A program made the position numbers and the translations under genes. From Parcubacteria group bacterium (GTDB lineage Bacteria > Patescibacteriota > Microgenomatia > UBA1400 > PJMF01), in contig CALQZX010000005.1 in the NCBI GenBank assembly GCA_943350175.1, positions 150 through 64,149 of the forward strand: 64,000 nt of DNA, given 5' to 3'. The notes beneath the pieces were generated by a model. That model saw only the letters and a list, made by a program, of their open reading frames with translations. It did not search any database and was not told where the DNA came from. Of this stretch, positions 2,561 through 55,002 are shown piece after piece (within the stretch, counting starts at the first letter, position 1; each line of letters begins with the position of its first letter).

Positions 2561-3757
2561 ATGGCACAAATAGGAACATATACAACAAAAGAAACCCCTG
2601 TCAGAGATGATAAATTGATAGGAACAAGCTCGAACGGAGGATCAACAAATAACTTTTTATTATCTGCCATTCGTCAGGTGTACTACCCCGAAGATTATGG
2701 CGCTGTAGGTGATGGAGCTGCAGATGATACTACTGCGTTGATAAACTGTGCGTCAGCGGCTGGTGGCAAGATAATGGCACTACAGCCAGGGAAAACCTAT
2801 ATTTATTCAGGCCGAATCATACTGACCGCTAATACGATTTTAAATGGCAATCATGCAATCCTACAGCGCAGGGCCGGGACGACACTTGTGTCTACCACTC
2901 TAACAGCTATTGCCGAAAACGCTCCCAGTGGGGTAACGGTACGGGTTGCTGACCCGTCTAAATTTGCAGTGAATATGTGGGTATCTCTAGATAATAACGT
3001 TCCCTCAATGGCAGAGCCAACTTTCACTTTGGCTGGTCATAAAATCACCAATATATCAGGTGATGTGCTCACTTTGGATAGTGCGTTCACTACTGCTATG
3101 GGGATTGGCTCTTATGTGCGCATGTCTACAACGTGTATCAACGCGGGGGCAGGTTGCAAGATTCGTAACCTGAGAATAGACGGTAACAAGGCCAATCAGC
3201 TTATAGGTGCTGCTGCGTGGGGTTACTGGGGGCAGCATTATGAACTATTAGTTACATCTTCGATAGTCGAAGGATGCGAGATTTACAATGGTCAATCTGA
3301 AGGCATTGGAATGGCTGGGATACACAATGTCATAAAAAATAACAATATTCACGATTGCAATGGGAATGGAATCCATTTGTCTGCATCGGTAAGCGATGAA
3401 ATTACAGGAAATCGACTTATAAATAATAATTTGCTAGACAACAACGCATCTAACCTGCTAACCGAGAACACGGGACACAACGAAGGACATATCTGCTTTT
3501 CTGACACAACAGAAAGTACAGTTGTGTCAGGTAATCATATTATGGCAACAGGCGCGTATGGCATCGGTGCATTCGACGCTACAAATAAATATATAATTGT
3601 TAACGCTAATATTTTTGACAGTTGCGTATCTGCCCCCATGCAAATTGGTGCTGGTGCAGATGGTGTTATCCTGACCTCTAATTTCTTTATTGATTGTGGA
3701 GTACAAGGTACAGTAGGAGGCTCAGTAATTGAGCATAATCACGTTATAAACAGATAG
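2561..3757 (+). CDS. pectate-lyase-superfamily / right-handed parallel beta-helix protein (tailspike-like)
   Basis: YYPEDYGAVGDGAADDTTALINCASAAGG is the hallmark motif of Pectate_lyase_3/tailspike proteins. Repeated NNxIHDCNGNGIHL / ITGNRLINNNL coils of a parallel beta-helix follow. Confidence 0.6.
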   Translation: MAQIGTYTTKETPVRDDKLIGTSSNGGSTNNFLLSAIRQVYYPEDYGAVGDGAADDTTALINCASAAGGKIMALQPGKTYIYSGRIILTANTILNGNHAILQRRAGTTLVSTTLTAIAENAPSGVTVRVADPSKFAVNMWVSLDNNVPSMAEPTFTLAGHKITNISGDVLTLDSAFTTAMGIGSYVRMSTTCINAGAGCKIRNLRIDGNKANQLIGAAAWGYWGQHYELLVTSSIVEGCEIYNGQSEGIGMAGIHNVIKNNNIHDCNGNGIHLSASVSDEITGNRLINNNLLDNNASNLLTENTGHNEGHICFSDTTESTVVSGNHIMATGAYGIGAFDATNKYIIVNANIFDSCVSAPMQIGAGADGVILTSNFFIDCGVQGTVGGSVIEHNHVINR

Positions 3758-3795
3758 AAAACCACCTCGGACATGCAATAGGTTTCTCTTGAAGA

Positions 3796-3984
3796 CTATT
3801 TTTGAGCTTTAGTTTTTGGAGTTTTCTCTTTTTTGTTTTCGTTATCGCTAAAGCCTGATCGAATATTCTTGATAGCTTCCCCAATTCCTCTAGATAGCTC
3901 AGGTAGCTTCTTGCCACCAAATAACACAAGGACAATAACCAAAACAACAATAAATTCTTGTACCCCTATTCCAAACATATACAT
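3796..3984 (-). CDS. tatA: TatA/E family twin-arginine translocase subunit (second copy, opposite strand)
   Basis: MYMFGIGVQEFIVVLVIVLVLFGGKKLPELSRGIGEAIKNIRSGFSDNENKKEK... Near-identical at protein level, and ~85% identical at nucleotide level over the TM/hinge region, to the partial tatA at 1-158. The two copies are in inverted orientation. Confidence 0.8.
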   Translation of the reverse strand: MYMFGIGVQEFIVVLVIVLVLFGGKKLPELSRGIGEAIKNIRSGFSDNENKKEKTPKTKAQK

Positions 3985-9484: not shown

Positions 9485-11860
9485 ATGACCAAAAACAATA
9501 AAGGACTATTTAATAAAAAGGTTGAAAGTCTTTTGCGTAGATTACTTAGAAATGGCAACCGAAAATTTATTTCTATCAATAAGCTCATAGCGTTCAATTA
9601 TTACCTCATTGCGCTGAGAGCAAAAACATTTTTCAGATTTCGAGTTCTCCATTTTCTTAACGCCAAGAAAATGCTTATTGGTTCGTTGATTTATTTTTTG
9701 CTCCTGATAGGCTCTATACTTTTATTAGGGCAGTTTATTGATCCAGCATTTGCTAGGAGTGATGCCATCACCTTTTTTACAGCAGTAGCGGCCATGATCG
9801 GTGGTATCTTAGCAATTATCTTTTCACTTAGTATTCTCCTGATGGGAAATGCAGCAGAGCGTATTCCGGTAGGTTTTTATGAGACTGCTGCAAGAGATTG
9901 GTTGCACGATGTGATATTTTTTCTCATTAGCATTTGTTCTTTAGTGGTCTTCTCTTTTGCACTACTATTTAGCAAACTCAATCTAGGGCTTACGGTACTC
10001 TCTTTTCAGTCAGCTATATTTTTGATTGGCTTTGTTTTCTACCTAACCTTTGTCTTCTATCAAAGAGTTCGAGACAGGCTTGACCCAAATAATGTATTAA
10101 AAATTGCCTCTAAGCAAGCCTTCGCCAAGTTAGACTTCACTCATAAACGAGCTCAAGAAATCGCTGACGTTTTGATTAGACAGCCAAAGTTGGATAAAAA
10201 GGTCACTAAAGAGGAAGCATTGGCAACTTCTTTTCAATATTTGAAACCAGAGTTTGCTTACATCAATAGCAGACTCAACTATCTTTTTGACTATCATGGA
10301 AAATTGGTGGCCTCCAACGAGAGAAGCTCTGCTCTTGGTGTTCTGCAGGTAATAACCAATATTCTTCAAAAGTATTTTCAAACCAGAAAAGATTCCTCGT
10401 TCGTACTACCTGCCGGATTTATTTTAGCCACCACGAGCGATTCTTGTGCTTTCCTAACTCCTCCACTAGAAAGACTAGTGGCTGTTGGTGAAAATTACAT
10501 GAGAGAAAATGACAATGAAGGGATTACCCGAGTAATTTCTATCTTTGTGCAGTTATGTAAGTCAGCCAGTGAGATCAACTATCTGACCAAACATAAGGTA
10601 GAAAGCCCAATAATGGAGCAATGTAGAGGCTACCTAAACCAACTGCTTGAGAGTGCTATTAAATTTAACTATCAGGAGGCTCTATTCCAAGGCATATTAG
10701 CATATGAAGAAATAATTCCAATCGTAATAAAACAGAATCTCCACCATGAGTTTATATCGATTTATGACATGCTCGACAAGATTGCCATGAGTGCCCTAAC
10801 AAACAAATATAACGTAGTTTTAGGTCAGGTAATAAATACTTACACTTCGATTCTGTCTCAACTGATAGCGACAAAATACTTTAACTTGGAAATGGAACTA
10901 GGTTCTTTATGGGAACACTTGAGGAATATTATTTTTTACGCATATGTTTCTATGGTGACTGGCTCTCTTGATAACAGCTTTTCAGTTCAAACAAACTTAG
11001 CAAACCCATTCACAGCAATGTCCTCGATGATTTTCCAAACAGCAAGAGCAGCTACGAACGCTAAAACTGAAGAAGAAATCAACGACTGGAAGGAGGCATT
11101 CTTTACTACTACAGAGGAGTTAAGATCTACTCTCCGCTACCTTTCAGAAAAGATGAAGACAGCCAATCACATTTTGATCAGCACCTTTGGTGAGATTATT
11201 TCCGATGTAGGTTGTTTATTAGTCGACTTGACTAAAAACGGGAAATGGGCAGGTGATAAAGAAGAACTCACAAAACAAATTGGTTGGTATATCTTCCAGA
11301 CAGAATGGTTTACCCATGACCTTAAAAAGATCAAAGATAACAATTCGTTTGACTCTCTAATTGAAGCAGCATCAAAAATAGGTATAAGAGCCATGCAACA
11401 AGAGTTAGATCAAACTGCCAAGGATGCAATTAAAATTCTTTACAACTTTGCCATTAAGATGATGACTTTAGGTGAAGGTGATAGTTATGGTTTTACGGAA
11501 CCAAGAATAATGGAGAGAGCTTGCTACATTGGAGTGCTGGCTCTTAAATTGGGTAAAACAGAGATTATAGACGATTTGAAAGGTTATATAAAAACCTTTG
11601 AAGATGCATATCGAAAAAAATGGTATCCAGAAGGGCCACCAGAAAAAGGAAAGTTAATCTCGCCAAGTTATGATCAACTAATGATGGAAGTGCATGGTCT
11701 TGTAGAAAAGAAAAGAAGTCGTTACGGGCTTTTACCAATTATGGATCGAGCAGATGATGATCTACTACCACTCATCACAGAAGAAGATGTAAACAAATTT
11801 ATTATGGAAGTCTGGGGTGTAACGATTGAAACTAAGACTAGTAGCAGTATGTTTTTTTAA
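9485..11860 (+). CDS. large membrane-anchored protein of unknown function (5-6 N-terminal TM helices + ~600-aa helical domain)
   Basis: Hydrophobic N-terminal third, long soluble C-terminal part, no recognisable catalytic motif. Confidence 0.4.
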   Translation: MTKNNKGLFNKKVESLLRRLLRNGNRKFISINKLIAFNYYLIALRAKTFFRFRVLHFLNAKKMLIGSLIYFLLLIGSILLLGQFIDPAFARSDAITFFTAVAAMIGGILAIIFSLSILLMGNAAERIPVGFYETAARDWLHDVIFFLISICSLVVFSFALLFSKLNLGLTVLSFQSAIFLIGFVFYLTFVFYQRVRDRLDPNNVLKIASKQAFAKLDFTHKRAQEIADVLIRQPKLDKKVTKEEALATSFQYLKPEFAYINSRLNYLFDYHGKLVASNERSSALGVLQVITNILQKYFQTRKDSSFVLPAGFILATTSDSCAFLTPPLERLVAVGENYMRENDNEGITRVISIFVQLCKSASEINYLTKHKVESPIMEQCRGYLNQLLESAIKFNYQEALFQGILAYEEIIPIVIKQNLHHEFISIYDMLDKIAMSALTNKYNVVLGQVINTYTSILSQLIATKYFNLEMELGSLWEHLRNIIFYAYVSMVTGSLDNSFSVQTNLANPFTAMSSMIFQTARAATNAKTEEEINDWKEAFFTTTEELRSTLRYLSEKMKTANHILISTFGEIISDVGCLLVDLTKNGKWAGDKEELTKQIGWYIFQTEWFTHDLKKIKDNNSFDSLIEAASKIGIRAMQQELDQTAKDAIKILYNFAIKMMTLGEGDSYGFTEPRIMERACYIGVLALKLGKTEIIDDLKGYIKTFEDAYRKKWYPEGPPEKGKLISPSYDQLMMEVHGLVEKKRSRYGLLPIMDRADDDLLPLITEEDVNKFIMEVWGVTIETKTSSSMFF

Positions 11861-11868
11861 CATGCATA

Positions 11869-12090
11869 ATGAACTATAATAACTTTATGTCGCCAGAAAA
11901 GATTGGTAAAAAACTAAAAGAAGCACGTATAAGGCTTGGACTTACGCAATCTGATGTGGCTGAAAAAGCTGGCATTAGCGCGAATTATTACGCCAGAGTT
12001 GAACGAGACGAGGAAAACACTACGGTTGAAACCTTGAAAGGAATCTGTAAGGTTCTGAAGATCAAATCCTCGAAAGTACTTTCTTTTTAA
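11869..12090 (+). CDS. XRE-family (Cro/C1) HTH transcriptional regulator
   Basis: IGKKLKEARIRLGLTQSDVAEKAGISANYYARVERDEE is a canonical HTH_3 motif. Confidence 0.7.
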   Translation: MNYNNFMSPEKIGKKLKEARIRLGLTQSDVAEKAGISANYYARVERDEENTTVETLKGICKVLKIKSSKVLSF

Positions 12091-41933: not shown

Positions 41934-42515
41934 TTAAAGGCTAACTTTGGGGCTTTTTTCTTCTTCACTGCTGACTTCCATATGAGAGCCAGTTTCTGAA
42001 GTAGCAATGCCTTTTTCTTCTTTAAAACCAAACATGTTGGCAATTAAGTTTGAAGGAAAGACCACTAATTTTTCGTTGAAGTCCTGAGACAGGTCAATGA
42101 CGCTACGACGAGCATAGGTCAATTTGTCGGCAGTATCAGTTAGTTCATCCATGAATTTAGTAATAGCTTCATTGGCTTTTAATTCTGGATTACTTTCAAC
42201 CACGACTTGAATTTGTGGTAGTAAGTTTTGAATTTTGCTAACTGCCTGATCGATATCTTTGGCAGAACCTGAAGAGTCAGCTTTGGCGACAGATTGGCGA
42301 GCTTCGGTTAAAAGCTTGTAAATGCCTTGTTCATGTTTGAGTTGACCTTTGACGGCAACTTCAAGGTTTGGAATAAGACCGGCTTGACGTTTCAATTGAT
42401 TGCCAATCTCTTGAATACTGGCTTTGATTTGCGTCTTGAGAGTCTGGAGAGAGTTGTAAACACCAACAACGTAAAAGAAGACGAGAGCTAAGATAATAAT
42501 GAGAGGAATCATCAT
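41934..42515 (-). CDS. lemA: LemA family protein
   Basis: N-terminal TM followed by the YNSLQTLKTQI…Q…GLIPNL LemA signature. Confidence 0.8.
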   Translation of the reverse strand: MMIPLIIILALVFFYVVGVYNSLQTLKTQIKASIQEIGNQLKRQAGLIPNLEVAVKGQLKHEQGIYKLLTEARQSVAKADSSGSAKDIDQAVSKIQNLLPQIQVVVESNPELKANEAITKFMDELTDTADKLTYARRSVIDLSQDFNEKLVVFPSNLIANMFGFKEEKGIATSETGSHMEVSSEEEKSPKVSL

Positions 42516-42761
42516 ATTGGGTCCTTTATTAGATGTTAATTAGAGATTTTATTATAGCATTTGCTCACGCAAAGTAACTACTGACAAAGAATAGGTTTTT
42601 GACCGAGCTTTGCGAGGGAATGTCCGAAGTGGAGACGGAGGACGCACTCCATCAGAAAAAAGGGTCTGAAATTCGCTAAAGCATCTTTATATACCTGCTG
42701 CTTTTTGCAATACGTTGCATTGCAAAAAGACAGGGTCTGAAATATAATAAGAACTTCGAAA

Positions 42762-42837
42762 TGGCCTCGTGGTGTAGCGGTTAACATGTCTCCCTGTCAC
42801 GGAGAAGACCGTCGGTTCGAATCCGATCGAGGTCGCC
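42762..42837 (+). tRNA. tRNA-Asp (anticodon GTC), CCA encoded
   Basis: Cloverleaf folded by hand. Acceptor GGCCTCG/CGAGGTC, D-stem GTGT/ACAT, anticodon arm TCTCC-cTGTCac-GGAGA, T-arm GTCGG-TTCGAAT-CCGAT, discriminator G + CCA. Confidence 0.85.
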
Positions 42838-44472
42838 ATTTCGGATTTCTTGCTTACTTAGTTTGAAATACTCGGCTAAGTAAGCGGTTCCATCTACAAT
42901 TTGATTGTAAGTTGGCAATTCATTAAACATCATTCCAAAAAGTTGCTCTTGTCTACGCACATTCTCGGTGTCTATTAGCAGTTCTTCCAAGTGTTCCATG
43001 AAATAGCGAGCATATTGGAAACCAAGCTTAGCATTGAGTTCTTTTTTAACTTGTTGGTCTCTCATTTCTCTTGCTGATTTTAGCTTTTTTTCTACTCCCT
43101 CATAGTCCTCTTCTAAGGCCTTTCTGACTAATTCGCTATCTACTTGTTTGATGCGTTGAAAAATGGCGTTTTGCTCGGCTAGGAGGTCTGAGACGTACTT
43201 CTCTTTGTTCTGGCTTTCTTCAATTACATCAGATCTTTTTTTATCCCATTCTTCATAGAACAAAGCCTCCAGCAGCTTATGAAAATTTTCATCAAATTTT
43301 ATTTGTTTGATAAATTCATAAACATTCTTATTAAATTCGCTGGCTCCTTCAGACCACTGCTTATGACCTTGGTGGCAATGATAATATTTATACTTTTTTC
43401 CACCCCTACCTTTTGAAGCACTCCCTCTCAATTCGTGATTACAGATTGGACAAAGAACGACTCTTTTAAATGGGAATTCAGGATTGTGCTTCATGATGCG
43501 CTTTTTGGTTCTCTCTGTTTGCGCCTCATTCCCGTAAAAGATTTTGACCTCATCACCTGAAATTTCCAGTAAGATCTTATCTTTATTAGCTTGATTAAAT
43601 AACTCTGCATCAATAAAACCCGGAAATTTGGCTTTAACAGGCTGGTAATTTGTCCATTTTTCACAAAAGACTCCTGTGTAAATAGTTCTAGTCAAGAACT
43701 CAGCTATTCTGCTGGCACTTGCTTGATTTCCGCCGATCTTGCCAATTGGTTTTTTAGTTCTTCTATCACGCTTATTTTTAATTCTAGACCTATATCCAAG
43801 TCTATTTATTTCATTTGCTATTTCTGGTAAATTAAAGCCCTTAGCTTTCATTTGAAAAATCTTCTTTATAAAAAAAGACTCTTTTGGGTTTTCTATTAGA
43901 ATAAATCGTTTACCACTATCAGTTTCTATCCTCTTAGATTCAAATCCAAATGCCGAGCCATGTATACGATAACCTTGGCGAGTGTAAGTAACTTCAGCTC
44001 CTATTGTTTGAGTTAAGATGTTTCTTCTATCAGCTTTGGCTTGTTCTGCTGCCTCTATTTCAGCTGGTTCTGATGGTGAATATTTACTCCAATCATACTC
44101 AATTCCTAAATGATCCAGAGTGTTTATTTTTTCTCCGATAGTGTTGTAAACATCTGTTATTCTTACGCCATTTTGCTCAAGTTTTGTTTTCCATTTTAAG
44201 TAATCTACTCCACCACCTCTAGTGAATCTACTAATATTTTTAAATAACAATATATCGATTTTGTTCTCTTTATTGATGACATGGTCTAAAACTTCTTGGA
44301 AGAACTCTCTTTCTTTTAAAGCTCCACTTTCGATCAAAGAGAAAACTTTCTTTTCCTCTAAATTTTCTTTTTTTATATAGTGGCGGCACTGTTCTAACTG
44401 ATGCTCTAGACCGTCTCCTTCGGAAGCTTGTTTTGGTGATGATGCTCTAACGAGGATTACTGTGTTTTTCAT
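42781..44472 (-). mobile_element. large serine recombinase (resolvase catalytic domain + recombinase domain + zinc ribbon); 3' end reads antisense through tRNA-Asp 3' half
   Basis: Catalytic VILVRASSPKQ (Ser nucleophile) and ISRFTRG, recombinase domain, zinc ribbon CPICNHELRGSASKG…YKYYHCHQG, and a C-terminal coiled-coil. The last 19 codons are the reverse complement of tRNA-Asp positions 20-76. Confidence 0.8.
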
Positions 44473-45269
44473 TAGCAGTTCTCCTTATAGCTAACTTCTA
44501 AAACTTTGTCCACCATACAGGCGGCCAATTGTCGAAGTTTGGAAATTATTTTTTCAATTTCATTGTTGGACAAATTATTGAATTTGTTCCCCAACAATTT
44601 ACGTGCTAATTCTATCGTCATCTGGGACCTTTCCCAGTTAACGAAGAGATGAACTGCAAAAAAACCTGATCAATCAACAATCGATTTGTCTACAAAAACT
44701 AATAACCCATAACGAGCAATAAATAGTTTGATTATGTTTGTTATTAATTAATGAGAGAACAGAATTGTGTGATTGACCCAATTATTAATTGATCTAAAAA
44801 TACTTTTATAAATATTCTTAGATCAATTCTTCTGTTAACTATATTGTCTGGTTTTGAGCAGTAATTTGATGCCATCTAAATAGTATCAAATGGTCGCCCA
44901 AAACCTTTCAATTATTAATTATTACTAATTTGGTTTATATCACCCCTAATTTTTTTTGCAAGCTATTAAAAAATAATTAAATTTGTTTTAAAAACCCCAA
45001 CCCACAACAAGCTATTGGCTAAGGTTTTTACTGCTCTCTATAAACCTGCCTTGGTACGCGATATTTTTCAGTGTAGAAACTATCCTATAATTTATAAAAT
45101 AATTTACCTTATTTATGTAAAGGAATGTCCATAGATAGAGGACGTCCTTTAGGCCTCTTTAGGTGTAGGAGGGGTGTAATCTTTGTCAGACGATTGATGA
45201 TTTGTTATCTAGATAAGGAGCTAAGCAAGCCGGCCGGCAGGTGGCTACACTCATGTTTTAAATAAGCGC

Positions 45270-45641
45270 TTATTTTAGTATCTGTTGTTTTAACAGAACC
45301 AGCTTTGTTCGTTTAACAAATAGCCTTTTAAGAAATTCATAATAATCTAGATCTACTTTTTCAACTGCTTTTTCTAAGGCTTCATTAATTCTCTTAATAT
45401 CCAAAGATGGCAAAGTATTAATCTTTAAATTCAATTGGCGTAATGCATATTTATTCTCAACTCTCATAGCGTATTGTTCTGTTGTTTCTAACTCATCAAG
45501 AAATGGAGGGGCTGGATCAAAGAAACAAAGTATTTTAAAGATGAGAGTATGAATGAAAACCTTATTTACCATGCCGGGGATAACGTATTCGGCAATAATA
45601 AAACTCGAATTGCCATCGTGTTTAATCCTTTTTATTTTCAT
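45270..45641 (-). CDS. hypothetical protein (island)
   Basis: 123-aa ORF. AT-rich codon usage, distinct from the core genes. Confidence 0.3.
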   Translation of the reverse strand: MKIKRIKHDGNSSFIIAEYVIPGMVNKVFIHTLIFKILCFFDPAPPFLDELETTEQYAMRVENKYALRQLNLKINTLPSLDIKRINEALEKAVEKVDLDYYEFLKRLFVKRTKLVLLKQQILK

Positions 45642-45918
45642 GGTTTTTCATTTTGAACAAAATATTATCAATTCTTTCTTTCTTTTCTTGTTCATTTTTT
45701 GCATATGTTCTATAAAAAAAAAGTCCAGACAGCCACATAAAAATTGTTCCTCCATCATAAATACCGTGGCTCATGGCATAAAGTCCAATAAGAAATGAAA
45801 TTGAACAAAAAACACCAGACGTTTCAGATTTCGGTATTTTATCTTTGTGCAATTTGCTTATGACTAATGGTCCAACGCAGATAAGTATAATTATTATTAA
45901 TAAAGTTTCTTCTGTCAT
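45622..45918 (-). CDS. small hypothetical membrane protein (island)
   Basis: 98 aa with two TM helices. Overlaps the downstream ORF by 20 nt. Confidence 0.3.
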   Translation of the reverse strand: MTEETLLIIIILICVGPLVISKLHKDKIPKSETSGVFCSISFLIGLYAMSHGIYDGGTIFMWLSGLFFYRTYAKNEQEKKERIDNILFKMKNHENKKD

Positions 45919-45964
45919 AATGATGTTTATTATATACCACCAGTAAGTCGACCACAGGTAAAGA

Positions 45965-46201
45965 TTGCATCAAAATTTACCCATGGTCGACAAGCAAGAA
46001 TTATCAGCAAGGTTGGGTCAAAGATTGGCGGAACTGAGATCTCTTAAGGGATTTACTCAGGAGAGGTTGGCTTATGATGCTGAACTTAATAGGGCTTATG
46101 TTGGCTATATTGAGCGCGGAGAAAGAAATCCATCTGTTGTGACGATGGCAAAGATAGCGCTTGCCTTAAAAGTTGAGTTGCATGAGCTTTTTAGGTTATA
46201 A
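45965..46201 (+). CDS. XRE-family HTH regulator (island)
   Basis: LGQRLAELRSLKGFTQERLAYDAELNRAYVGYIERGERNPSVVTMAKIALAL is an HTH_3 motif. Confidence 0.65.
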   Translation: MHQNLPMVDKQELSARLGQRLAELRSLKGFTQERLAYDAELNRAYVGYIERGERNPSVVTMAKIALALKVELHELFRL

Positions 46202-46267
46202 ATAATTGTTTATTTAAGATTAATATCCACAATTCAAGTACGACCCAATTTTTGAAAATTTATCCAA

Positions 46268-47920
46268 TTAGGAGTACATTTCAGCTGACTTCAAAGCTAT
46301 TCTATTTATTGATTGACGTATATCGAATATTGGATCTGAAACATCTACATACGGATCATATTTATTCAATTCAAATGCTAGAGCGATAGCATACTCAGTG
46401 AAGGCAACTTCATATGCCAGGCGCCTAAATACAGGATCTTCAGGAGAACGATCTTTTTTAGCTGCAATAATTTGAGGATGGTCGAGATTGATGTAAATAG
46501 TTCTAAATTCTGATTTATATTCTGCTCTATCTGGCATATTTGATCCTAAATGGGAAAATTCAATGCTAAATCCGCCTCCACTTCTCTTTTTTTTGCCATC
46601 ATCGCCAACATAATGTCCTTTTGAATCTCCCATCACTTTAGGCTTTACTATTGGGTTTAATTCCGGTGGCTCCTCGTCTTTATTCATGGAGTTTTGTACC
46701 TCTTTTAGGTTTAAAAAACCAACTTCTCCAATGTCATTTTCTATAGTTGCTGGATTGTTTCCTCCAAATAGAAAATCATTGGTTCCTTTAGTTTTTTCTC
46801 CAAATTCTATATTTCCTGTGTCAGGACCGTGTTTTAGCTCAGTTGTTTGTATTTTTTTTAGTTTCATCCTAAATGAATCAAAATCTGAATTTATAATATT
46901 TTCAATCTTTGATGCTTCATCTCGTAGTCTGTTAGCTTCTTCTGAAGCTTTTTCATTTTTATATTCTTCAACAAGTTCTTTTCTAACTTTTTCAAACAAC
47001 GGTCCAATAAATTGATACACTTCATTTACAATTTCGTTTTGTGGATTCAACTTCATTGATCTAGAAGCATCAAATGCTGAGGGTACTGAGTTGTCATCTG
47101 CGAGAGTCTCGACATCAATTTCTCCAAAAATAAAATTTGCCATTTCTTTACCTTCAAATCCGAGCATTGATGTTTCAAGCCATACTCCATTGGAAAAAAT
47201 TGAAATTCCACGAAAATCTTTCTCTAATGGTGACCTTGAAACCCTGATAATTAGTTTTGTTTTTCCAACGCGAGACATTTTTTTATTAAACGTTTCAAAA
47301 ACTTCTTCTCTTTCAATAGATGGTTCTATGAATTCACATAGGTGATTGTTAACTATCACAGAGACATCTTTTGGCCATTTTACAAGGTGCCTCTCTATAT
47401 ATTCAATTACACTTGATTGATCAATTAATTTTAGGTGAATTTTCTCAATCTCGACAAGTGTTCCATCATTTAAATCAGTTGGCTTTTCTTTGTAGATAGT
47501 TGTAACAGGCACAGGACTTCCAGATGAGCAATTTTCTAAATCTTTTCTTAGTAACTGAACGGCAGATGTTTTGCCATTTTTTGTTGTAGTAATTTTTAAA
47601 GAGTCGGCAATTCCAAAAGCCGCTGATTTTCCAGTTCCAAAATAACCTCTTCCAGGTTGTCCTGTTTTTCGATCTTGATTCTCTCCATGCATAATGAAAT
47701 AGTTTTCTAAGTCAGCCCAATTCATTCCTCTTCCATTATCTAGAATACTAATGCTTTTGTTTTTACTATTTAGGGATACTCTGATTTTTGGACTTACACC
47801 CTTATTAACATATTGAAGGCTATTCGAAACATACTCCCAAACGACCAGGCGTTCATTTTTAAACATTCCTGCTGATTGAAGCAAGTCTCTGGATATGTGA
47901 GATTTAACTAATATTGGCAT
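46268..47920 (-). CDS. GHKL-superfamily (HATPase_c_3 / MORC-like) ATPase with ~350-aa C-terminal extension
   Basis: Bergerat-fold motifs: N box EYVSNSLQY, G1 box ILDNGRGM, G2 box GQPGRGYFGTGKSAAFG. No histidine-kinase HisKA, gyrase or MutL C-terminal domains. Confidence 0.65.
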   Translation of the reverse strand: MPILVKSHISRDLLQSAGMFKNERLVVWEYVSNSLQYVNKGVSPKIRVSLNSKNKSISILDNGRGMNWADLENYFIMHGENQDRKTGQPGRGYFGTGKSAAFGIADSLKITTTKNGKTSAVQLLRKDLENCSSGSPVPVTTIYKEKPTDLNDGTLVEIEKIHLKLIDQSSVIEYIERHLVKWPKDVSVIVNNHLCEFIEPSIEREEVFETFNKKMSRVGKTKLIIRVSRSPLEKDFRGISIFSNGVWLETSMLGFEGKEMANFIFGEIDVETLADDNSVPSAFDASRSMKLNPQNEIVNEVYQFIGPLFEKVRKELVEEYKNEKASEEANRLRDEASKIENIINSDFDSFRMKLKKIQTTELKHGPDTGNIEFGEKTKGTNDFLFGGNNPATIENDIGEVGFLNLKEVQNSMNKDEEPPELNPIVKPKVMGDSKGHYVGDDGKKKRSGGGFSIEFSHLGSNMPDRAEYKSEFRTIYINLDHPQIIAAKKDRSPEDPVFRRLAYEVAFTEYAIALAFELNKYDPYVDVSDPIFDIRQSINRIALKSAEMYS

Positions 47921-47922
47921 AT

Positions 47923-48495
47923 TTAAGACCTTAATTTTTGTGCTATCGGCGCTAAGATTTTAATAAGTGGACCAAGCTCTGGGTCGTTTGAAAAAAGATT
48001 TTGAATTTTTGTGATTTTATTGATTCTAGTTTGGCCATCGATGTAATTATTTAAGCGAAAGAAATCATCTGCCATGGTTTTTGAAATTATCGACAGATCA
48101 TGTTCATTGTGAGATAAATAGTAATGATAAGCATCTGTATTCATCAGCCTATCTTTTTCTCTTTGAATCTGAGCTTGCTCTTTATCTGGTCTTTTTTTAA
48201 TATATCCCGACCATTTTTCAGGCAAATTATTTTTGGAGAATTTCAATCCAATTGGAGATAACATCCAACCATTTTTATGAGAACCAACAACGTAATTGTC
48301 GATATTTCCAGCGGCGGCGATAGCTTTTCTAACTGACTCTAGATCAATATTTTGTTTAAATTTCCTCCAAGAAAATATTCCTGGCGCAATTTCCGCTACC
48401 TTCATAGCAATGTTCTCAGTATCAACTGATTCTTTAACTCCATTAAGTGCGTACAAGGCTAAAGTGACAAGTTGTTTTTGATTTAGTTCACTCAT
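47923..48495 (-). CDS. hypothetical protein, co-transcribed partner of the GHKL ATPase (2-nt spacing)
   Basis: 190-aa ORF immediately upstream on the same strand. Possible winged-helix-like N-terminus. No catalytic motif recognised. Confidence 0.35.
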   Translation of the reverse strand: MSELNQKQLVTLALYALNGVKESVDTENIAMKVAEIAPGIFSWRKFKQNIDLESVRKAIAAAGNIDNYVVGSHKNGWMLSPIGLKFSKNNLPEKWSGYIKKRPDKEQAQIQREKDRLMNTDAYHYYLSHNEHDLSIISKTMADDFFRLNNYIDGQTRINKITKIQNLFSNDPELGPLIKILAPIAQKLRS

Positions 48496-48523
48496 AATTA
48501 ATATTAATAGTTGTATTTATACG

Positions 48524-50704
48524 TTGTATCATATAATACAACTATTGAATATGAAAATGGAATACCCATCTAGAAAATCACCTCTCGTTCCAAAGCCGCT
48601 TCTTTCAGTTTTAGAAAAAATTATTATTCCAGAGGAGATTTGTCAAAAGCATGGCATTAAATTTAATAGCAATATTTTAGACATTGCTCAGATCCAATTG
48701 CTGGATTTATCGGCAGATGCCATAGAGGATCTTGGGAGATTTGTTGCAGCATGTGTTGGTGAAAAAAATAGTGAACTTAAGAAAATTAATGGCATGATAT
48801 CTTCAATTTCTTTAAAAGCTAAATTTGTTATGTCTAAAATTAATATTCGTAATAAAAATTCTCTCATGAGATCTGGGTTTAAAGATTCAGATGATTTTTC
48901 TCAAATTCCACTTTCAAGCCTATTTAAAGTTAAGAATCTTGGTCCATTGGGAATATTGGAAATATTTTCAGTTCTATATTTATTTACTGATAAAAACTCT
49001 TATGATAATAAAAATAACGACCTAGTGTTTTCTAAAGCCCTTTCGAATTTAGCTTTAGAGTTATCAAAAAAAGATTGGGCAACGAATGTCTACATAAATG
49101 ATCCAAGAATTGCAGACGATTTAGAATTGCTAGATATGGGATTTGAAAATTTAACTTTAGCTGAGGTTGCTAAAAAAATTGAATCTTCAGCTCATCAAGT
49201 TGAAACAGTGCAATCAAAAAAATATTTACTTAGAAGTTTTATTTTAAAAAATGAACAAAGGTTAAATTTTAATTTAAAACAAGAGGTTGTTGAAATTATT
49301 GAATTCATTGAAACAAACTTTAAGTATAGGCAAATAGTGACTGCCAGGTTGGGATTGGATGGAGAGGATCCTATAACGCTAGAAGAAGTAGGACAAAAAA
49401 TGGGAATTACGCGCGAACGAGTTAGGCAAATTGAGGCAAAAACTATAAAAAAAATTAAAAACTATCTTCCTATTTGGACCCCTGTATTGGACAAAGCAAT
49501 AAAAATAATCTCAAAATATTCCTTAATTCATGAAAATAAACTTCAAATGGTGTTACTTAAAGAGAAAGTTGTCGCAGAAAGGTTTTCAATAAAATCAATT
49601 CAAAAAATAGCAGAAGTTTTTAGTAGAAATATTAGAATTGAATTTGATGCAGAAACAAAGCTAGTTGGTTCTAATGAACTAATTCAATATGTTCCAAAAA
49701 TATTGGGAGTGATTATTAGATTAATTGATCATTGGGGTGCACTAAATATTGATAATGTAGTTTTAAAGTTGGAACAAGATGGGATAAAAGTAAATAGTCA
49801 GCATTTAGTAGAAATACTCGAAATTAATAAAGATATCTGTTGGTTAGACGATGATAAAAAATGGTTTTGGATAAAAACGCGAAATAGTAGGAACAGGGTA
49901 TTAAACTCTATTGAGAAAATAATGTCTGTGGCTGGAGAAATTAATCTTGGAGATTTAAGAAATGGAACAGGTCGCAGCAATAGAATGCATGGCGTTAGAT
50001 TGCCAAGTAAAATTTTGCTTTCTCTTTGTTTGTCGTCAGGCAAATATATTGAGCTAGAAGGTAAAAGGATAGGTGGAATTAATCTACCAGATTGGGGTGA
50101 AACACTAACAGGTGTTGAAAAAACACTTGTTGAAATTTTATTTAGAAATGGATTTGTAATGAAAAGGGAAAAGCTTGAAGAAGCAGCAATATCTTCTGGA
50201 ATAAACAAATCAACATTCTATGTTTATCTGGGTTATTCACCAGTAATTCAAAGATATGCTCATGGAGTCTATGGTTTAAGAGGGGCTTCTATTAATGCAG
50301 CTAAAGTTAAATCTCTAATTCCTCAGCTTATTAGAAAAGGTAAGTCCATTCAGGACTATGGATTTACTGATTCCGGAAATCCATGGATAGGATTTAAAAT
50401 GTCACGCTCCTCCACAGCAAGTGGAGTTTTAGGTTCTCCAAGTTCATTTTCGAGATATATTATCGGTTCATATAAACTCATCACTGAAACAAAAGAAGTA
50501 GTTGGGACACTTGTTGTAAAAAGTAATAATATGTGGGGATTATCTCCATTTTTCAGAACATGGGGAGTTGAAAGCGGTGATTACATAGTTTTGGAATTTA
50601 AAAAAAGTAATGATACTGTATTAGTGACGGCAGGAGATCAAGAATTACTTGGTTGCTATCAGAACAAAGAAGAATTCCAATTTGTAGAGCAAGTGCTTAT
50701 TTAG
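48524..50704 (+). CDS. large hypothetical protein with embedded sigma-70 region-4-like HTH
   Basis: Residues ~283-312, DPITLEEVGQKMGITRERVRQIEAKTIKKIKN, match the sigma70_r4 consensus (TLEEVG…TRERIRQIE.KAL.KL). The rest is unrecognised. The true start is probably at 48551/48557 (MKMEYP…). Confidence 0.45.
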   Translation: MYHIIQLLNMKMEYPSRKSPLVPKPLLSVLEKIIIPEEICQKHGIKFNSNILDIAQIQLLDLSADAIEDLGRFVAACVGEKNSELKKINGMISSISLKAKFVMSKINIRNKNSLMRSGFKDSDDFSQIPLSSLFKVKNLGPLGILEIFSVLYLFTDKNSYDNKNNDLVFSKALSNLALELSKKDWATNVYINDPRIADDLELLDMGFENLTLAEVAKKIESSAHQVETVQSKKYLLRSFILKNEQRLNFNLKQEVVEIIEFIETNFKYRQIVTARLGLDGEDPITLEEVGQKMGITRERVRQIEAKTIKKIKNYLPIWTPVLDKAIKIISKYSLIHENKLQMVLLKEKVVAERFSIKSIQKIAEVFSRNIRIEFDAETKLVGSNELIQYVPKILGVIIRLIDHWGALNIDNVVLKLEQDGIKVNSQHLVEILEINKDICWLDDDKKWFWIKTRNSRNRVLNSIEKIMSVAGEINLGDLRNGTGRSNRMHGVRLPSKILLSLCLSSGKYIELEGKRIGGINLPDWGETLTGVEKTLVEILFRNGFVMKREKLEEAAISSGINKSTFYVYLGYSPVIQRYAHGVYGLRGASINAAKVKSLIPQLIRKGKSIQDYGFTDSGNPWIGFKMSRSSTASGVLGSPSSFSRYIIGSYKLITETKEVVGTLVVKSNNMWGLSPFFRTWGVESGDYIVLEFKKSNDTVLVTAGDQELLGCYQNKEEFQFVEQVLI

Positions 50705-51075
50705 AAGTTATTGAGATTTATGACTGTGAGTAATCGCTTAGCTTTTTAATATGTTTCTATAAACATATAGGTAATATCTAACCTAAATTAAGATCAAACC
50801 CTACTTCCTCAGGCGTAAACCAATTCCCCATCACATTTAAAATCTTCTCAAGTGACTGACTTAAATTTTCCACCCAATTTATATCTGGTTCGCCAAGTAA
50901 AAGAAGGACGTCAGAAATGGCGTCTTTTTTTGTTTATGATCTTAAATCTGAGTCGGACGGCGAAACTAGTTCGCGACGGAAAGTGAATCCGATTTTTGGT
51001 GAATACGACTCTTTATCGTTATTTGTGATATATTTTAATTGTTTTGTGAACACAAGCAATTAAAATGAAGGATTT

Positions 51076-51381
51076 TTGATGTGCGAAGATGATTCTAAAC
51101 AGGAAAGTATATTGCTGGGGCAACTAGATAGAACTAATCCAGCGACACGTGCAGAGCAGCCTTCTCAAGAAATTTTAACTGAAATGACCAAGCTTTTATT
51201 GGCAAGTAATACGTTTATAGAGTGGAATGCCTTCATATCAAGTATTATTTCAAGAAATAGAGGAATTATTCCACAGTCTTTGCTTAATGAAATCGCTCAG
51301 CCTGGTTCTGCACTTCAGAATCATCTCAACGATTTAAAAATTAAAGAATTTGGCAACACTTTTTCAAGAAAAAAATATTAA
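51076..51381 (+). CDS. doubtful small ORF at island edge
   Basis: 101-aa ORF with no motif. Confidence 0.2.
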   Translation: MMCEDDSKQESILLGQLDRTNPATRAEQPSQEILTEMTKLLLASNTFIEWNAFISSIISRNRGIIPQSLLNEIAQPGSALQNHLNDLKIKEFGNTFSRKKY

Positions 51382-51397
51382 AATATTTATAATTAAT

Positions 51398-51471
51398 GCG
51401 ACCGTAGTTCAGCGGTAGAATGCAAGCTTCCCAAGCTTGAGGTGAGGGTTCGACTCCCTTCGGTCGCTCCA
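51398..51471 (+). tRNA. tRNA-Gly (anticodon CCC), CCA encoded
   Basis: Acceptor GCGACCG/CGGTCGC, anticodon arm CAAGC-ttCCCaa-GCTTG, T-arm GAGGG-TTCGACT-CCCTT, 3' TCCA. Confidence 0.85.
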
Positions 51472-51472
51472 G

Positions 51473-51811
51473 ATGAATAAAAAAATATTAGTTTCAACAT
51501 CGGCTATCATTTTTTCCTGCTTAGCACTATTGCTATTAAATTCGCAGTCTCTTTTACTTTGCTCAACCCTAATCTTGTTGGCTTTTGCAAAACACAAGAT
51601 TTATCCAATTAAAAAAGAATTATTTTGGTATTTATTAGTTGGATTTGGAGGAGCATTTGTTGAAATTATTTTAGTAAATTTTGGAAATGCTTGGAGTTAT
51701 TCAGCTCAGCATCTTTTCAATATTCCAATTTGGATGCCATTTTTTTGGGCAACATTAGGGACTACAATAATATCGTTATACGAAGGAATTAATCTTAAGG
51801 AATCTAAATGA
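51473..51811 (+). CDS. small hypothetical membrane protein (3 TM)
   Basis: 112-aa hydrophobic ORF starting 2 nt after tRNA-Gly. Overlaps the next gene by 4 nt. Confidence 0.35.
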   Translation: MNKKILVSTSAIIFSCLALLLLNSQSLLLCSTLILLAFAKHKIYPIKKELFWYLLVGFGGAFVEIILVNFGNAWSYSAQHLFNIPIWMPFFWATLGTTIISLYEGINLKESK

Positions 51812-52392
51812 GACATCACCAAGTCGCAAAATTAGTTGAACAAGCTTATCTTTCTTCCAAGCAAAACATCGCTCTTTGGATGTGGCAAAATCATTTGCAG
51901 TTTGTAGCTCAAAAAGCTTCGGAACTTTCAGACAAATTTAACGCCAATGCAGACTTAGCTGTTGCTGGAGCTTTTTTACATGACTTTGGCGATGCTTTTG
52001 TCAGTCGTCACGCTGATAACCATGAAGAAATCTCTAAGCAAGAATCCATTAAAGTTTTACAAAAGGCAGACTATTCCTCACAAGAAATTCAAGAAATCTT
52101 AGAAAAAATTATCGCTCCCCACTCCTGCTACGAAGGAAATATGCCAGAAACTTTGGAGGGCAAGGTTTTGGCAACTGCTGATGCGCTCGCTCATTTGACC
52201 ACTGATTTTTATGTCCAGTTCGCTTGGAAAAATATGCCGGACGGAAAATCTTATCAAGAGTTCTTGGTTTGGGTCGGTGAAAAACTTGAGCGAGATTTCA
52301 ACGATAAAATCTTTTTTGAAGAAATCAAAGATGAAGTGCGAGAAAAATATTTAGCTTTAAAATTAGTATTTAGTTCTTCAAAAATGCTTTAG
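51808..52392 (+). CDS. HD-domain phosphohydrolase
   Basis: AGAFLHDFGDAFVSRHADNHEE (H…HD…D) metal-ligand pattern. Confidence 0.6.
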   Translation: MRHHQVAKLVEQAYLSSKQNIALWMWQNHLQFVAQKASELSDKFNANADLAVAGAFLHDFGDAFVSRHADNHEEISKQESIKVLQKADYSSQEIQEILEKIIAPHSCYEGNMPETLEGKVLATADALAHLTTDFYVQFAWKNMPDGKSYQEFLVWVGEKLERDFNDKIFFEEIKDEVREKYLALKLVFSSSKML

Positions 52393-52398
52393 TTTCTC

Positions 52399-53085
52399 TT
52401 ATCTAATTCTCTCTCCAGTCCCACCATCGTAGGCGACTAAATCTTCAGGTCTAGATGAAGTAGATTCAATAATCGAGCGCTGTTTGGTGAAATATGCTTC
52501 GTTTTCGCGATAAAACTGTTCATCATTGGCATAAGGAACCGCTCCGTCTGGATATCTTGCAAATTCTTTTTTGAACAAATCTGTGATCAACTTTTCTCTT
52601 TCAGGCAGAACTAGTCCATTTGCAGGATTACTTAATGGATTTGCCTCGTAGGAATAACCCTGCCCAAAAAATTTATGGAGTATTGCTTCGATGCGTGGGT
52701 AATGTTGAGTATCAGAATTATATGTAAACCTCCTCCATTCAGGATGATATTCTCGAATATATTTAAGCATTGCGCCTGCTTCAGTGGCTGTATCAAACCC
52801 GGCTTTCATTGGAGTTACATTAGTAAAACCGTCGTAGCCTGTTAATAAACGTGATGTAGTGATGGACATAGATTCATCTGGATAATTTTTACCAGTGTGA
52901 TAATTATGTTGTCCACCACCAACTAATATTGGAAAATCACTACTAATCATTCCCTCATCTCGTAATCTATAAATTTGAAGTATGCGACCGATGCTTAAAT
53001 GGTTCGCCTGGTATTTTTCTTGAAGTACATCTAGAGTCACTCCACCCATAAAACACAAAATTGCATCAGAATCAAGTTTGCTCAT
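52399..53085 (-). CDS. hypothetical protein
   Basis: 228-aa ORF with coding-like composition and no confident motif. Weak DUF218-like GGG segment. Confidence 0.4.
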   Translation of the reverse strand: MSKLDSDAILCFMGGVTLDVLQEKYQANHLSIGRILQIYRLRDEGMISSDFPILVGGGQHNYHTGKNYPDESMSITTSRLLTGYDGFTNVTPMKAGFDTATEAGAMLKYIREYHPEWRRFTYNSDTQHYPRIEAILHKFFGQGYSYEANPLSNPANGLVLPEREKLITDLFKKEFARYPDGAVPYANDEQFYRENEAYFTKQRSIIESTSSRPEDLVAYDGGTGERIR

Positions 53086-54130: not shown

Positions 54131-54203
54131 TGCCAAAGTAGCTCAGCTGGTAGAGCAACGGTATCGTAAACCGTAGGTCGTGGGTTCGATCCCCACCTTT
54201 GGC
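54131..54203 (+). tRNA. tRNA-Thr (anticodon CGT), CCA not encoded
   Basis: Acceptor GCCAAAG/CTTTGGC, D-arm GCTC-AGCTGGTAG-AGC, anticodon arm ACGGT-atCGTaa-ACCGT, T-arm GTGGG-TTCGATC-CCCAC. Confidence 0.8.
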
Positions 54204-54237
54204 TCAAAAGTAGTAATATAAAATATAGTAAAAACCT

Positions 54238-55002
54238 ATGTTTAACTCTAAAAATTATTCATCTATGTATCAACAAAAAAATGATAAAAAAGGTTTTGCC
54301 TCTTCCCGCTTGGTAAAAAGAGAAGAAAAGAAACTCAAAAAACAAACTTTTTATTATCTTTTTTTTGGCATTTTAATTCTTCTACTATTTATTTTTTTAA
54401 TCGTGCCAAATTTGATTAAGCTTTTCTTTGCGGTAATAGATAAAGATTCTCCTTTTGTAGAAAAAGACACCACTCCTCCACAAGTGCCGATTCTTTCTAG
54501 TTCTCCAGTTGAGGCGACTTTTTCTGCGAGCCTCAATCTTCGTGGTTTTGCTGAACCAAAGAGCAAGGTGGTTTTCTTGCTCGACTCAGTTAAAACAGCT
54601 GAAATTCAAGTGGCTGAAGATGGAAAGTTTGAACATGAGTTAGCTTTGACAGACGGTGCAAACGAATTATTGATTTTTGGTATTGATGAAGCAGGCAATG
54701 AATCGCTCAAAACTAAATCCTATATGATCGCTCGTGATGGCGAAGCTCCAATTTTGGAAATAGAAGAACCAAAGGATGGCTCAGTGATTGAATTAAAGAA
54801 AAACCGCACCACCACCATCAAAGGCAAGACTGAATCAGAAGCTAAAGTGATGATTAATGACCGCTTGGTTTTGGCTGATAAAGAGGGAAATTTTTCCAGC
54901 AACTACTATCTGACTGAGGGTAAAAACGAACTTAAATTTATAGTGACTGATAAGGCTACTAATAAAACAGAGCGAACAATTGAAGTTGAATTTAAACTCT
55001 AG
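54238..55002 (+). CDS. membrane-anchored secreted protein with tandem Ig-like/beta-sandwich domains
   Basis: N-terminal TM (FYYLFFGILILLLFIFLIV), then beta-rich repeats. Confidence 0.4.
   Translation: MFNSKNYSSMYQQKNDKKGFASSRLVKREEKKLKKQTFYYLFFGILILLLFIFLIVPNLIKLFFAVIDKDSPFVEKDTTPPQVPILSSSPVEATFSASLNLRGFAEPKSKVVFLLDSVKTAEIQVAEDGKFEHELALTDGANELLIFGIDEAGNESLKTKSYMIARDGEAPILEIEEPKDGSVIELKKNRTTTIKGKTESEAKVMINDRLVLADKEGNFSSNYYLTEGKNELKFIVTDKATNKTERTIEVEFKL

Follow-up and report, generated by a model that had tools for sequence, protein, structure and literature searches.

A large serine recombinase gene reading antisense into tRNA-Asp: probable integration at a tRNA 3′ end through an attachment site inside the integrase gene

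Large serine recombinases (LSRs) such as the integrases of phiC31, Bxb1, TP901-1, A118/LI and SPbeta (SprA) combine resolvase, recombinase and zinc-ribbon domains with a long coiled coil, recombine short attachment (att) sites that share a very short identical core, and are encoded beside attP. According to the literature on genomic islands, serine integrases do not target tRNA genes (PMC4383910); in a 2026 survey, tyrosine integrases are reported to prefer RNA loci and to have longer att cores than serine integrases (PMC13626063). Here we describe a 64,000-nucleotide stretch of DNA (the window; contig CALQZX010000005.1, positions 150 to 64,149) from a Parcubacteria group bacterium, in which the open reading frame (ORF) of an LSR enters a tRNA-Asp gene from the opposite strand at one end of an 8,057-bp island. 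We estimate at roughly 85% the probability that the island is an element inserted at the 3′ end of tRNA-Asp through an attP that lies inside its own integrase ORF, with the native C-terminal tail of the integrase stranded at the far junction, attR.

The locus resembles the known LSR systems in domain layout, short att sites and position of the integrase gene. It differs from them in that its family targets the 3′ ends of tRNA genes, in that the predicted attP falls within the integrase ORF, so that the C-terminus of the protein would change on integration, and in its great divergence, no PDB sequence matching outside the catalytic domain. With islands of the Islander/Williams type, which are made by tyrosine integrases, it shares a tRNA-gene site, an intact tRNA, an integrase gene at the tRNA-proximal end and varied tRNA species among members; here, however, the enzyme belongs to another superfamily (the island encodes no recombinase other than this serine-type one), the window holds no duplicated tRNA fragment, cores in the family measure 4–9 nt rather than tens of nucleotides, and the crossover falls at tRNA positions 71–76. 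In SSV1-type archaeal integrases attP lies within the integrase gene (PMC8371274). That arrangement is alike in its tRNA target and in a gene that is split on integration and restored on excision, but its enzymes are tyrosine recombinases of archaeal viruses in which large parts of the gene are separated, whereas the window encodes a bacterial serine integrase that would exchange only its last 37 residues, beyond the folded domains, and keep its catalytic and DNA-binding domains. A further parallel is found in the integration-dependent immunity of the mycobacteriophages BPs and Brujita (cf. PMC4929511), where, as Broussard and colleagues are said to have described in 2013, attP lies in the 3′ end of the repressor gene and integration removes a degradation tag. 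There too integration gives a protein with an altered C-terminus, and with it a switch set by the integration state; the gene split in that case is the repressor and here the integrase itself, for which any role as a switch is putative. The full-text literature searched contains no description of serine integrases at tRNA 3′ ends or of attP inside a serine integrase gene.

A first-pass annotation of the window, made from its letters and ORF translations, had read the end of this ORF, placed at 42781–42837, as the exact reverse complement of the T arm and acceptor 3′ strand of tRNA-Asp, and had taken it for an attL-type junction made by a serine integrase. ARAGORN calls tRNA-Asp(GTC) at 42763–42838 on the plus strand, and the minus-strand ORF at 42781–44472 translates to 563 aa with a C-terminal end ...NGDLDRIRTDGLLRDRETC (...SKQEIRNGDLDRIRTDGLLRDRETC) before its stop, which together confirm the antisense overlap. 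The stop codon (42781–83), 18 codons and one further nucleotide lie inside the tRNA gene, giving a tRNA-antisense part (GDLDRIRTDGLLRDRETC plus stop, 42781–42838, minus strand) of 58 nt. The original start coordinate stands, while the end moves by one position to the tRNA terminus at 42838; likewise, the T arm and acceptor 3′ strand are indeed covered but not alone, since the overlap comprises tRNA positions 19–76, reaching from within the D arm through the anticodon arm, variable loop and T arm to the acceptor 3′ strand and CCA. Because any ORF that lies over a tRNA gene is its exact reverse complement by definition, a chance test at a single site is uninformative, and recurrence across relatives is the real test.

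The ORF product is an LSR. Pfam finds Resolvase PF00239 (E 3e-11) and Recombinase PF07508 (E 1e-8) in the 563 residues, and the best PHROG match is an integrase family (E 4e-37). Residues R9, S11, K14, Q15, R82 and R85 are invariant in an alignment of 14 closer sequences; R82 and R85 are also invariant across 51 sequences, an alignment in which C341, C344 and Y364 do not vary and H365 and C366 hardly do. Of these residues, C341, C344 and C366 are the zinc ligands, and the zinc-ribbon family PF13408 is precomputed on several family members. A profile of the family matches the catalytic domain of TP901-1 integrase (E 1e-11), its PDB matches being to catalytic domains only, and a phmmer search of PDB sequences with homologue P0015, which is 56% identical to the window integrase, gave no match. 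The AlphaFold2 (AF2) model of P0015 (predicted local distance difference test score, pLDDT, 86.7) has long paired helices at 396–494, and Foldseek relates it to the full-length integrase–att complexes 9y66 and 9dxd/f/h (E 6e-16 to 2e-14) and to phiC31 integrase (9rah). The locus thus displays a serine catalytic domain, a recombinase and zinc-ribbon domain with coiled coil, and a short att core without a long flanking repeat, as LSRs do. In the integrated form the ORF is a chimera: residues 1–545 are encoded by the element, residue 546 (G) by the core, and residues 547–563 by host tRNA read antisense.

The other end of the integrase gene was found at the opposite end of the island. P0015 lacks a tRNA-like end and finishes in ...YFKLNMDMRDKIESFGEPEHAYMELLTPAFEKITRVMSDWFTPTQVNYVY. 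In the window, 50778–50920 translates on the minus strand to ...LLLGEPDINWVENLSQSLEKILNVMGNWFTPEEVGFDLNLG and a stop, homologous to that C-terminus; the native 3′ end of the integrase gene (50778–50895, minus strand; 38 aa, GEPDINWVENLSQSLEKILNVMGNWFTPEEVGFDLNLG plus stop) therefore now lies 8 kb away, where it also constitutes the P arm of attP. Joining 50895 to 42839 yields an uninterrupted ORF of 583 codons (...YFKLSKQEIRN-GEPDINW...LNLG and stop). The stranded tail, the rejoined 583-aa ORF and the intact homologue P0015 together reproduce the SSV-type feature of an attP inside an integrase ORF that is split by integration. Homologous tails (hidden Markov model, HMM, E 1e-24 to 1e-25) are stranded at the far ends of three further Asp-type elements, L032, L001 and L038, which occupy the same site in other genomes with entirely different cargo in each and with island sizes of about 3.3, 6 and 9 kb, respectively; that of L038 includes a protein kinase and a Macro-domain protein. 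The stranded tail is an intact ORF in all six integrated elements where it was found (the window, L032, L001, L038, L021 and L026).

The island measures 8,057 bp from core to core and sits between tRNA-Asp(GTC) and that gene's own terminator. Both ends carry the 6-mer TCGCCA, at 42833–42838 in attL (acceptor nucleotides 71–72, the discriminator G73 and CCA) and at 50890–50895 in attR, with a GGC codon in the same frame at each copy (42833 and 50890). Nothing beyond this 6-mer is common to the two junctions: a search of 42500–52500 for direct or inverted repeats of any tRNA-Asp segment returned none, nor any repeat longer than the core. On the integrase strand attL reads ...CCGAAAT GGC GACCTC in the window, ...CCGAATT GGC GACCCC in L032 and ...AAATCG AGC GACCTC in L001, and attR reads ...TTACTT GGC GAACCA, ...AAAGTT TGC GAACTT and ...TTACTT GGC GAGCTA, respectively. 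Across the four Asp-type elements, GCGA (sense TCGC, positions 71–74; 42833–42836 in the window) is all that attL and attR share in every one, which places the crossover within TCGC. Past the core, the P′ arm would extend over about 42839–42865, inside the integrase coding sequence, where it codes for ...KLSKQEIRN; its motif AAATCCGA(A/T)ATGG is kept in the Glu-type element L026 in another reading frame. The predicted attP junction is ...CTGGTTCGCCATTTCGGATTTC... (...AATTTATATCTGGTTCGCCATTTCGGATTTCTTGC...) and the predicted attB junction ...CGAGGTCGCCAAGTAAAAGAAGG... (...GATCGAGGTCGCCAAGTAAAAGAAGGACG...). Two other placements were rejected. An inverted 9-mer, CGCCATTTC (42834–42) and GAAATGGCG (50915–23), considered as P′ and P half-sites, is not conserved in L032 and sits within the hairpin of the host terminator. 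A T-loop crossover, at the GGTTCG common to attR and the tRNA, fails in that attR to the right of GGTTCG is not tRNA-like and empty sites put the junction at TCGC.

Relatives with an empty site were reached through homologues of the neighbouring LemA protein (91% aa identity). L033 (a 751-kb NCBI contig), L035 (a JGI metagenome contig) and L036 (an ENA scaffold) have LemA, tRNA-Asp(GTC) and a terminator hairpin and no integrase; after the terminator, L033 and L035 continue with two small ORFs, tRNA-Gly(CCC) and tRNA-Thr(CGT), and their flanking genes are 78% identical to the window at the nucleotide level. This comparison, which the first-pass annotation had proposed, excludes an ancestral overlap of ORF and tRNA. 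The relatives' post-tRNA sequence, TCGCAAAATAAAA, hairpin, TTTTTTATTTTATGATC...TAGTTCGCGCCGCCAAGCGAA, is collinear with 50890–50999 of the window: aligned globally to the sequence downstream of the L035 tRNA-Asp, that segment scores 17 against -15.8 ± 5.3 for 1,000 shuffles (z 6.2), whereas element-side control sequences score -17 and -15 against the same flank, which is no alignment. The host B′ flank is thereby recognized at 50896–50995 (plus strand; collinear with L035 and L033), and it contains the native tRNA-Asp terminator hairpin with its T-run (50900–50931, plus strand; terminator scan), which the island now parts from its tRNA. The 9-mer gaatccgat, put forward earlier as a weak attR remnant at 50987–50995, actually lies at 50985–50993; in the relatives it lines up with sequence that is not tRNA, and it is a coincidental match within the host flank, about 0.13 such matches being estimated per 700-nt search. 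Together with the attR flank alignment and the split ORF, the empty sites support the original reading of 42781–42838 as an attL-type junction of a serine-integrase element at a tRNA-Asp 3′ end.

The least probable reading we considered is that no integration took place and that a resident recombinase gene has always overlapped tRNA-Asp. The same overlap is seen in L032, and in L001 and L038 up to the contig ends, as that reading would have it, but the gene is missing from this site in relatives that stand nearer to the window than L032 does, the cargo of window, L032, L001 and L038 has nothing in common, GC content is lower on the island (0.30–0.36 between about 43 kb and 52 kb) than in the left-flank genes (about 0.38–0.42), and a homologue is carried by a probably circular, phage-like contig of 6.6 kb.

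A different question is how much of the tRNA gene the element brought with it. The first-pass annotation had supposed that attP carries a copy of the last 57 nt or so of tRNA-Asp, so that the present T arm and acceptor 3′ strand would be element DNA that reconstitutes the tRNA, and a displaced partial copy would survive at attR. The tRNA is intact and abutted by the integrase gene, its T loop differs by 2 nt from that of the empty-site relatives, and a distant family member, L021, abuts a partial 41-nt tRNA-Ile copy, all of which are in keeping with this model. We nevertheless hold it to be very improbable. No tRNA-Asp fragment, displaced or otherwise, occurs within 42500–52500; attR runs straight on from TCGC as native post-tRNA flank; and attL and attR diverge right beside the 4–6-nt core in four elements. 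Moreover, the window tRNA-Asp is 94% identical to that of L033 and L035 over 79 nt, and the differences fall equally in its 5′ and 3′ halves. The acceptor stem is GGCCTCG/CGAGGTC in the window and GGCCCCG/CGGGGTC in L032, and the T stem also changes on both strands; since these stems covary between window and L032, both of their strands are host DNA. An encoded CCA is absent (GTCGCAAA, TCACAAAT) from the tRNA genes of the relatives with an empty site, from the pre-integration sites inferred for L032 and L026, and from the native tRNA-Asp or tRNA-Glu genes of the L032, L026, L033 and L035 hosts, whereas the junctions after integration read GCCA or ACCA. The element therefore supplies at most G73-CCA, installing an encoded CCA, and judging from these comparisons the whole tRNA body at 42763–42838, the B arm of attL, is host DNA.

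A free form of a related element appears to be represented as well. P0015 is encoded on contig L031 (6,665 bp, without a tRNA), where the integrase gene is intact with its native tail and is accompanied by genes for a small terminase, a helix-turn-helix (HTH) protein and a PIN-domain protein. The ends of L031 are identical over 30 nt, as would be expected of a circle assembled with a k=31 de Bruijn graph, and L031 is probably a circular relative in the attP form. Another native-tail member, P0052, stands on a 9.3-kb contig (L039) that also encodes Replic_Relax, MATCAP and DUF5681 proteins and a second protein with a resolvase domain (558 aa); no terminal overlap was found in L039, which looks plasmid-like rather than phage-like.

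The arrangement recurs across a large family. A protein search gave 91 homologues from Patescibacteria, 31–76% identical. In an exhaustive profile search 1,088 cluster representatives passed E <1e-30, the best 150 of which (E <=2e-108) match over most of the profile. A locus search built on the 14-sequence alignment provided 30 loci from species-representative genomes (Saccharimonadia, Woesebacteria, Paceibacteria, Gracilibacteria, WWE3, Buchananbacteria and a few otherwise-labelled bins), which with the window and L032 make 32; the family is largely confined to metagenome-assembled genomes (MAGs) of the Patescibacteria, or candidate phyla radiation (CPR). In 24 of the 32 loci the integrase ORF overlaps a tRNA on the opposite strand, by 4–152 nt (Glu 9, Arg 6, Gly 4, Leu 3, Asp 2), and several of the remaining loci stop at a contig break at the integrase 3′ end. 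The replacement tails (about 1–50 aa) follow no rule in length or sequence. Among 154 full-length proteins, 73 have [VA]xxxG[FILVM]E[PL]-type ends, which are the T loop read antisense, some 27 more have ..RT-type ends from the same T-loop sequence in another frame, and 22 have native tails. All 22 native tails carry W[NK] exactly 7 codons past the core codon, with freely varying residues in between. The non-Asp subfamilies show a conserved L/M-V before the tail, encoded by xTG GTx, the antisense of CCA plus discriminator, in both tail classes, as is expected of a shared core. An HMM of Asp-type tails located no stranded tails outside the Asp subfamily; another, built on 'WN' tails, picked up L021, L026 and L002. 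The core is GTGA (sense TCAC, positions 71–74) in Glu-type L026 and 9 nt long in Ile-type L021, where duplication of the host B′ sequence beside a genuine tRNA affords an internal control.

In L021 (a Buchananbacteria MAG; 3740–3871 and 11640–11885) the integrase reads into the partial 41-nt copy of a tRNA-Ile 3′ end, and some 130 nt further on come a second copy of host B′ and then a complete tRNA-Ile(TAT); the target would have been duplicated there, or the copy would be a remnant of an earlier event. Two far more distant serine recombinases, P0093 and P0094 (25% identity, 545 aa, zinc-ribbon Pfam), end ...LVPGTGIEPAHS..., which is tRNA-antisense-like, and the arrangement may thus extend beyond the family.

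Within the core, the central dinucleotide is probably TC at tRNA positions 71–72. The attP of L031, GCTTTGGC-GA-GCCAGAGC, is a 14/18 palindrome centred on GA (sense TC), and TC is favoured because it is both the centre of this palindrome and the only non-palindromic pair of the 4-nt core. In the window's attL, a 7-nt inverted repeat, AATCCGA (42820–26) and TCGGATT (42841–47), is symmetric about TC at 42833–34. Counted from the 71/72 boundary, P arms carry TGGAAC (sense GTTCCA) at offset 18–23, which corresponds to the W[NK] codons of native tails; Asp-type P arms have the same motif at the same offset in another frame, coding V-E, with TGGAAA in the window (integrase strand; a T-loop-like box TTTCCA at 50867–50872) and TAGAAA in L032. 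The T-loop box of the B arm is T(C/T)GAAC (sense GTTCGA; 42815–42820, plus strand, in the window), at offset 13–18. The offsets of both boxes hold for elements of the Asp, Glu and Ile types, whose reading frames differ. A recognition box that lies 5 bp farther out in attP than it does in attB is reportedly the hallmark of the LSR half-site model of Rutherford and Van Duyne, which the two boxes fit. The zinc-ribbon domain of the integrase would probably read the tRNA T-loop box GTTCGA in attB and a GTTCCA decoy 5 bp further out in attP, and reading the universal GTPsiC box would explain the family's moves between tRNA species.

These observations suggest a course of events in which the LSR, as the island's only recombinase, would have carried out the insertion, exchanging strands within the last nucleotides of the tRNA gene (acceptor nucleotides 71–72, discriminator 73 and CCA). 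The free form would have an integrase ORF of 583 codons with a 38-aa native tail and attP within its 3′ end. Integration would split this ORF, leaving residues 1–545 at attL and the tail 8 kb off at attR, and the truncated ORF would read antisense into tRNA-Asp as far as a chance stop, acquiring an 18-aa tRNA-antisense end; excision would restore the native gene. The overlap of 57–58 nt would arise because attP lies inside the integrase ORF. The tRNA promoter, deprived of its terminator, would also read through antisense into the integrase gene and, with the swap of tails, may tie integrase activity or expression to the state of integration. A promoter-like site, TTGCAA-17-TATAAT (42720–42748, plus strand; 10/12 consensus matches), 15 nt upstream of tRNA-Asp, is only a consensus match. 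A terminator scan of 42839–43150 finds no terminator-like site after tRNA-Asp, so that integration leaves this promoter-like site pointing into the integrase gene with no terminator-like site for at least 300 nt. Upstream of tRNA-Asp, GGGTCTGAAAT occurs twice, 71 nt apart, at 42655–42673 and 42726–42744 (repeat family D1); the second copy overlaps the promoter-like -10 region, and the pair may be duplicated promoter elements.

Whether the integrase differs in activity, stability or expression between its free and integrated states is, on present evidence, about an even bet against a neutral alternative. The latter, which we rate a little short of even, accepts the same architecture and holds the intragenic attP and the tail swap to be by-products of compaction, the tail being kept only as P-arm DNA. 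In its favour, the conserved W-N and V-E go back to a single DNA motif, TGGAAC, whose offset is the same whatever the frame, and the residues between it and the core are highly variable; the folded protein in the AF2 model of P0015 ends at about residue 543, just before the swap point, and is followed by a tail of low confidence; and tRNA-derived tails of about 1–50 aa imply that the body of the protein tolerates any end. Against it, conservation of the Asp-type tail runs 20–30 codons past the roughly 25-nt P arm (SLEKI..VM.NWFTPE) at ratios of nonsynonymous to synonymous substitution (dN/dS) of 0.28–0.66, native tails hold an amphipathic pattern past the WN motif, and stranded tails have stayed intact as ORFs in every one of the six elements where they were found. 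Native tails end ...LNLG, ...YVY, ...ESA and ...AMG, with no obvious ssrA-like tag.

Several points weigh against the integration scheme or parts of it. Taken together, the cores of L002 (TGGT) and L026 (GTGA) would instead place the crossover at 73–74, which in tRNA-Asp is a palindromic GC. Dyad symmetry of attP and attB in the window is weak; the P′ arm has no GTTCCA box at the mirrored position, and the B′ arm likewise lacks its box, while in a comparison of half-sites B resembles P′ and P resembles B′. The predicted attB had no exact match in metagenome contigs, nor the predicted attP in viral contigs. Neither the attP junction nor the empty attB of this exact strain was recovered, the empty sites coming from relatives at 78% nucleotide identity, and the circularity of L031 rests on its 30-nt terminal overlap only. 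The AF2 model gives the native tail a pLDDT below 50, and its conservation could reflect constraint on a DNA site rather than protein function. LSRs carry out attP x attB recombination unaided and depend for excision on a separate recombination directionality factor (RDF); no RDF was recognized on the island.

One ORF on the island is a possible regulator or RDF candidate. It encodes 49 aa (44472–44621, minus strand) with a stop that overlaps the integrase start (TAATG), and it has no Pfam, PADLOC or PHROG match; small ORFs also overlap the integrase start in L031, L032, L038 and L039. The remaining cargo (within 45270–50704) comprises minus-strand ORFs of 123 and 98 aa, a 550-aa GHKL/HATPase_c_3 ATPase (46268–47920, minus strand; Pfam), a 190-aa ORF (47923–48495, minus strand) and, divergent from these two, a 726-aa protein with a sigma-70 region-4 HTH (48524–50704, plus strand; Pfam). 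PADLOC matches are weak (MzaA, E 4e-9, over the HTH only; REase_II, 2e-4), PHROGs matches are also present, and 46268–50704 is possibly a defence or regulatory module, though one that could be assigned to no system. Between the 49-aa ORF and the next cargo gene, some 650 bp (44622–45269) contain no ORF of at least 50 aa and have a GC content of about 0.32; the stretch may serve the element for regulation or as an origin.

Two further differences were seen in the host flank. In the window, 2.66 kb separate tRNA-Gly(CCC) (51398–51471) from tRNA-Thr(CGT) (54132–54205), compared with 17–22 nt in L033, L035 and L001. The extra segment begins 2 nt past the tRNA-Gly 3′ end and encodes a 112-aa membrane protein, an HD-domain protein, a 228-aa ORF and an aldo-keto reductase, a homologue of which (69% aa identity) is cargo within the L001 integrase island; the segment may be the remnant of a second tRNA-3′-end island that lost its integrase. 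An alanine racemase gene lies between tRNA-Thr and the gene for a Big-domain protein in L033 (3186–4298) and in L035, and is missing from the window (54206–54238).

We propose tentatively, and with more doubt than confidence, that the family is a largely CPR-confined group specialized on tRNA 3′ ends through the GTPsiC box, in which the intragenic attP would act as a state sensor that biases directionality or expression, without or beside a classical RDF. Island finders seek a tRNA gene plus a displaced fragment and are therefore blind to such elements. A large family of this kind would expose a hidden share of the CPR mobilome, with one type of integrase accompanied by differing cargo at the tRNA-Asp site of each of four genomes. 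For inserting DNA in one direction, serine integrases are the principal tools, and the family would offer att sites on the most conserved tRNA sequence, of interest for portable "landing pads". It would also be a bacterial serine-recombinase counterpart of the SSV1 arrangement, in which integration rewrites the integrase gene, and two defined variants of the protein, with four short DNA sites, would allow a direct test for a switch governed by integration state.

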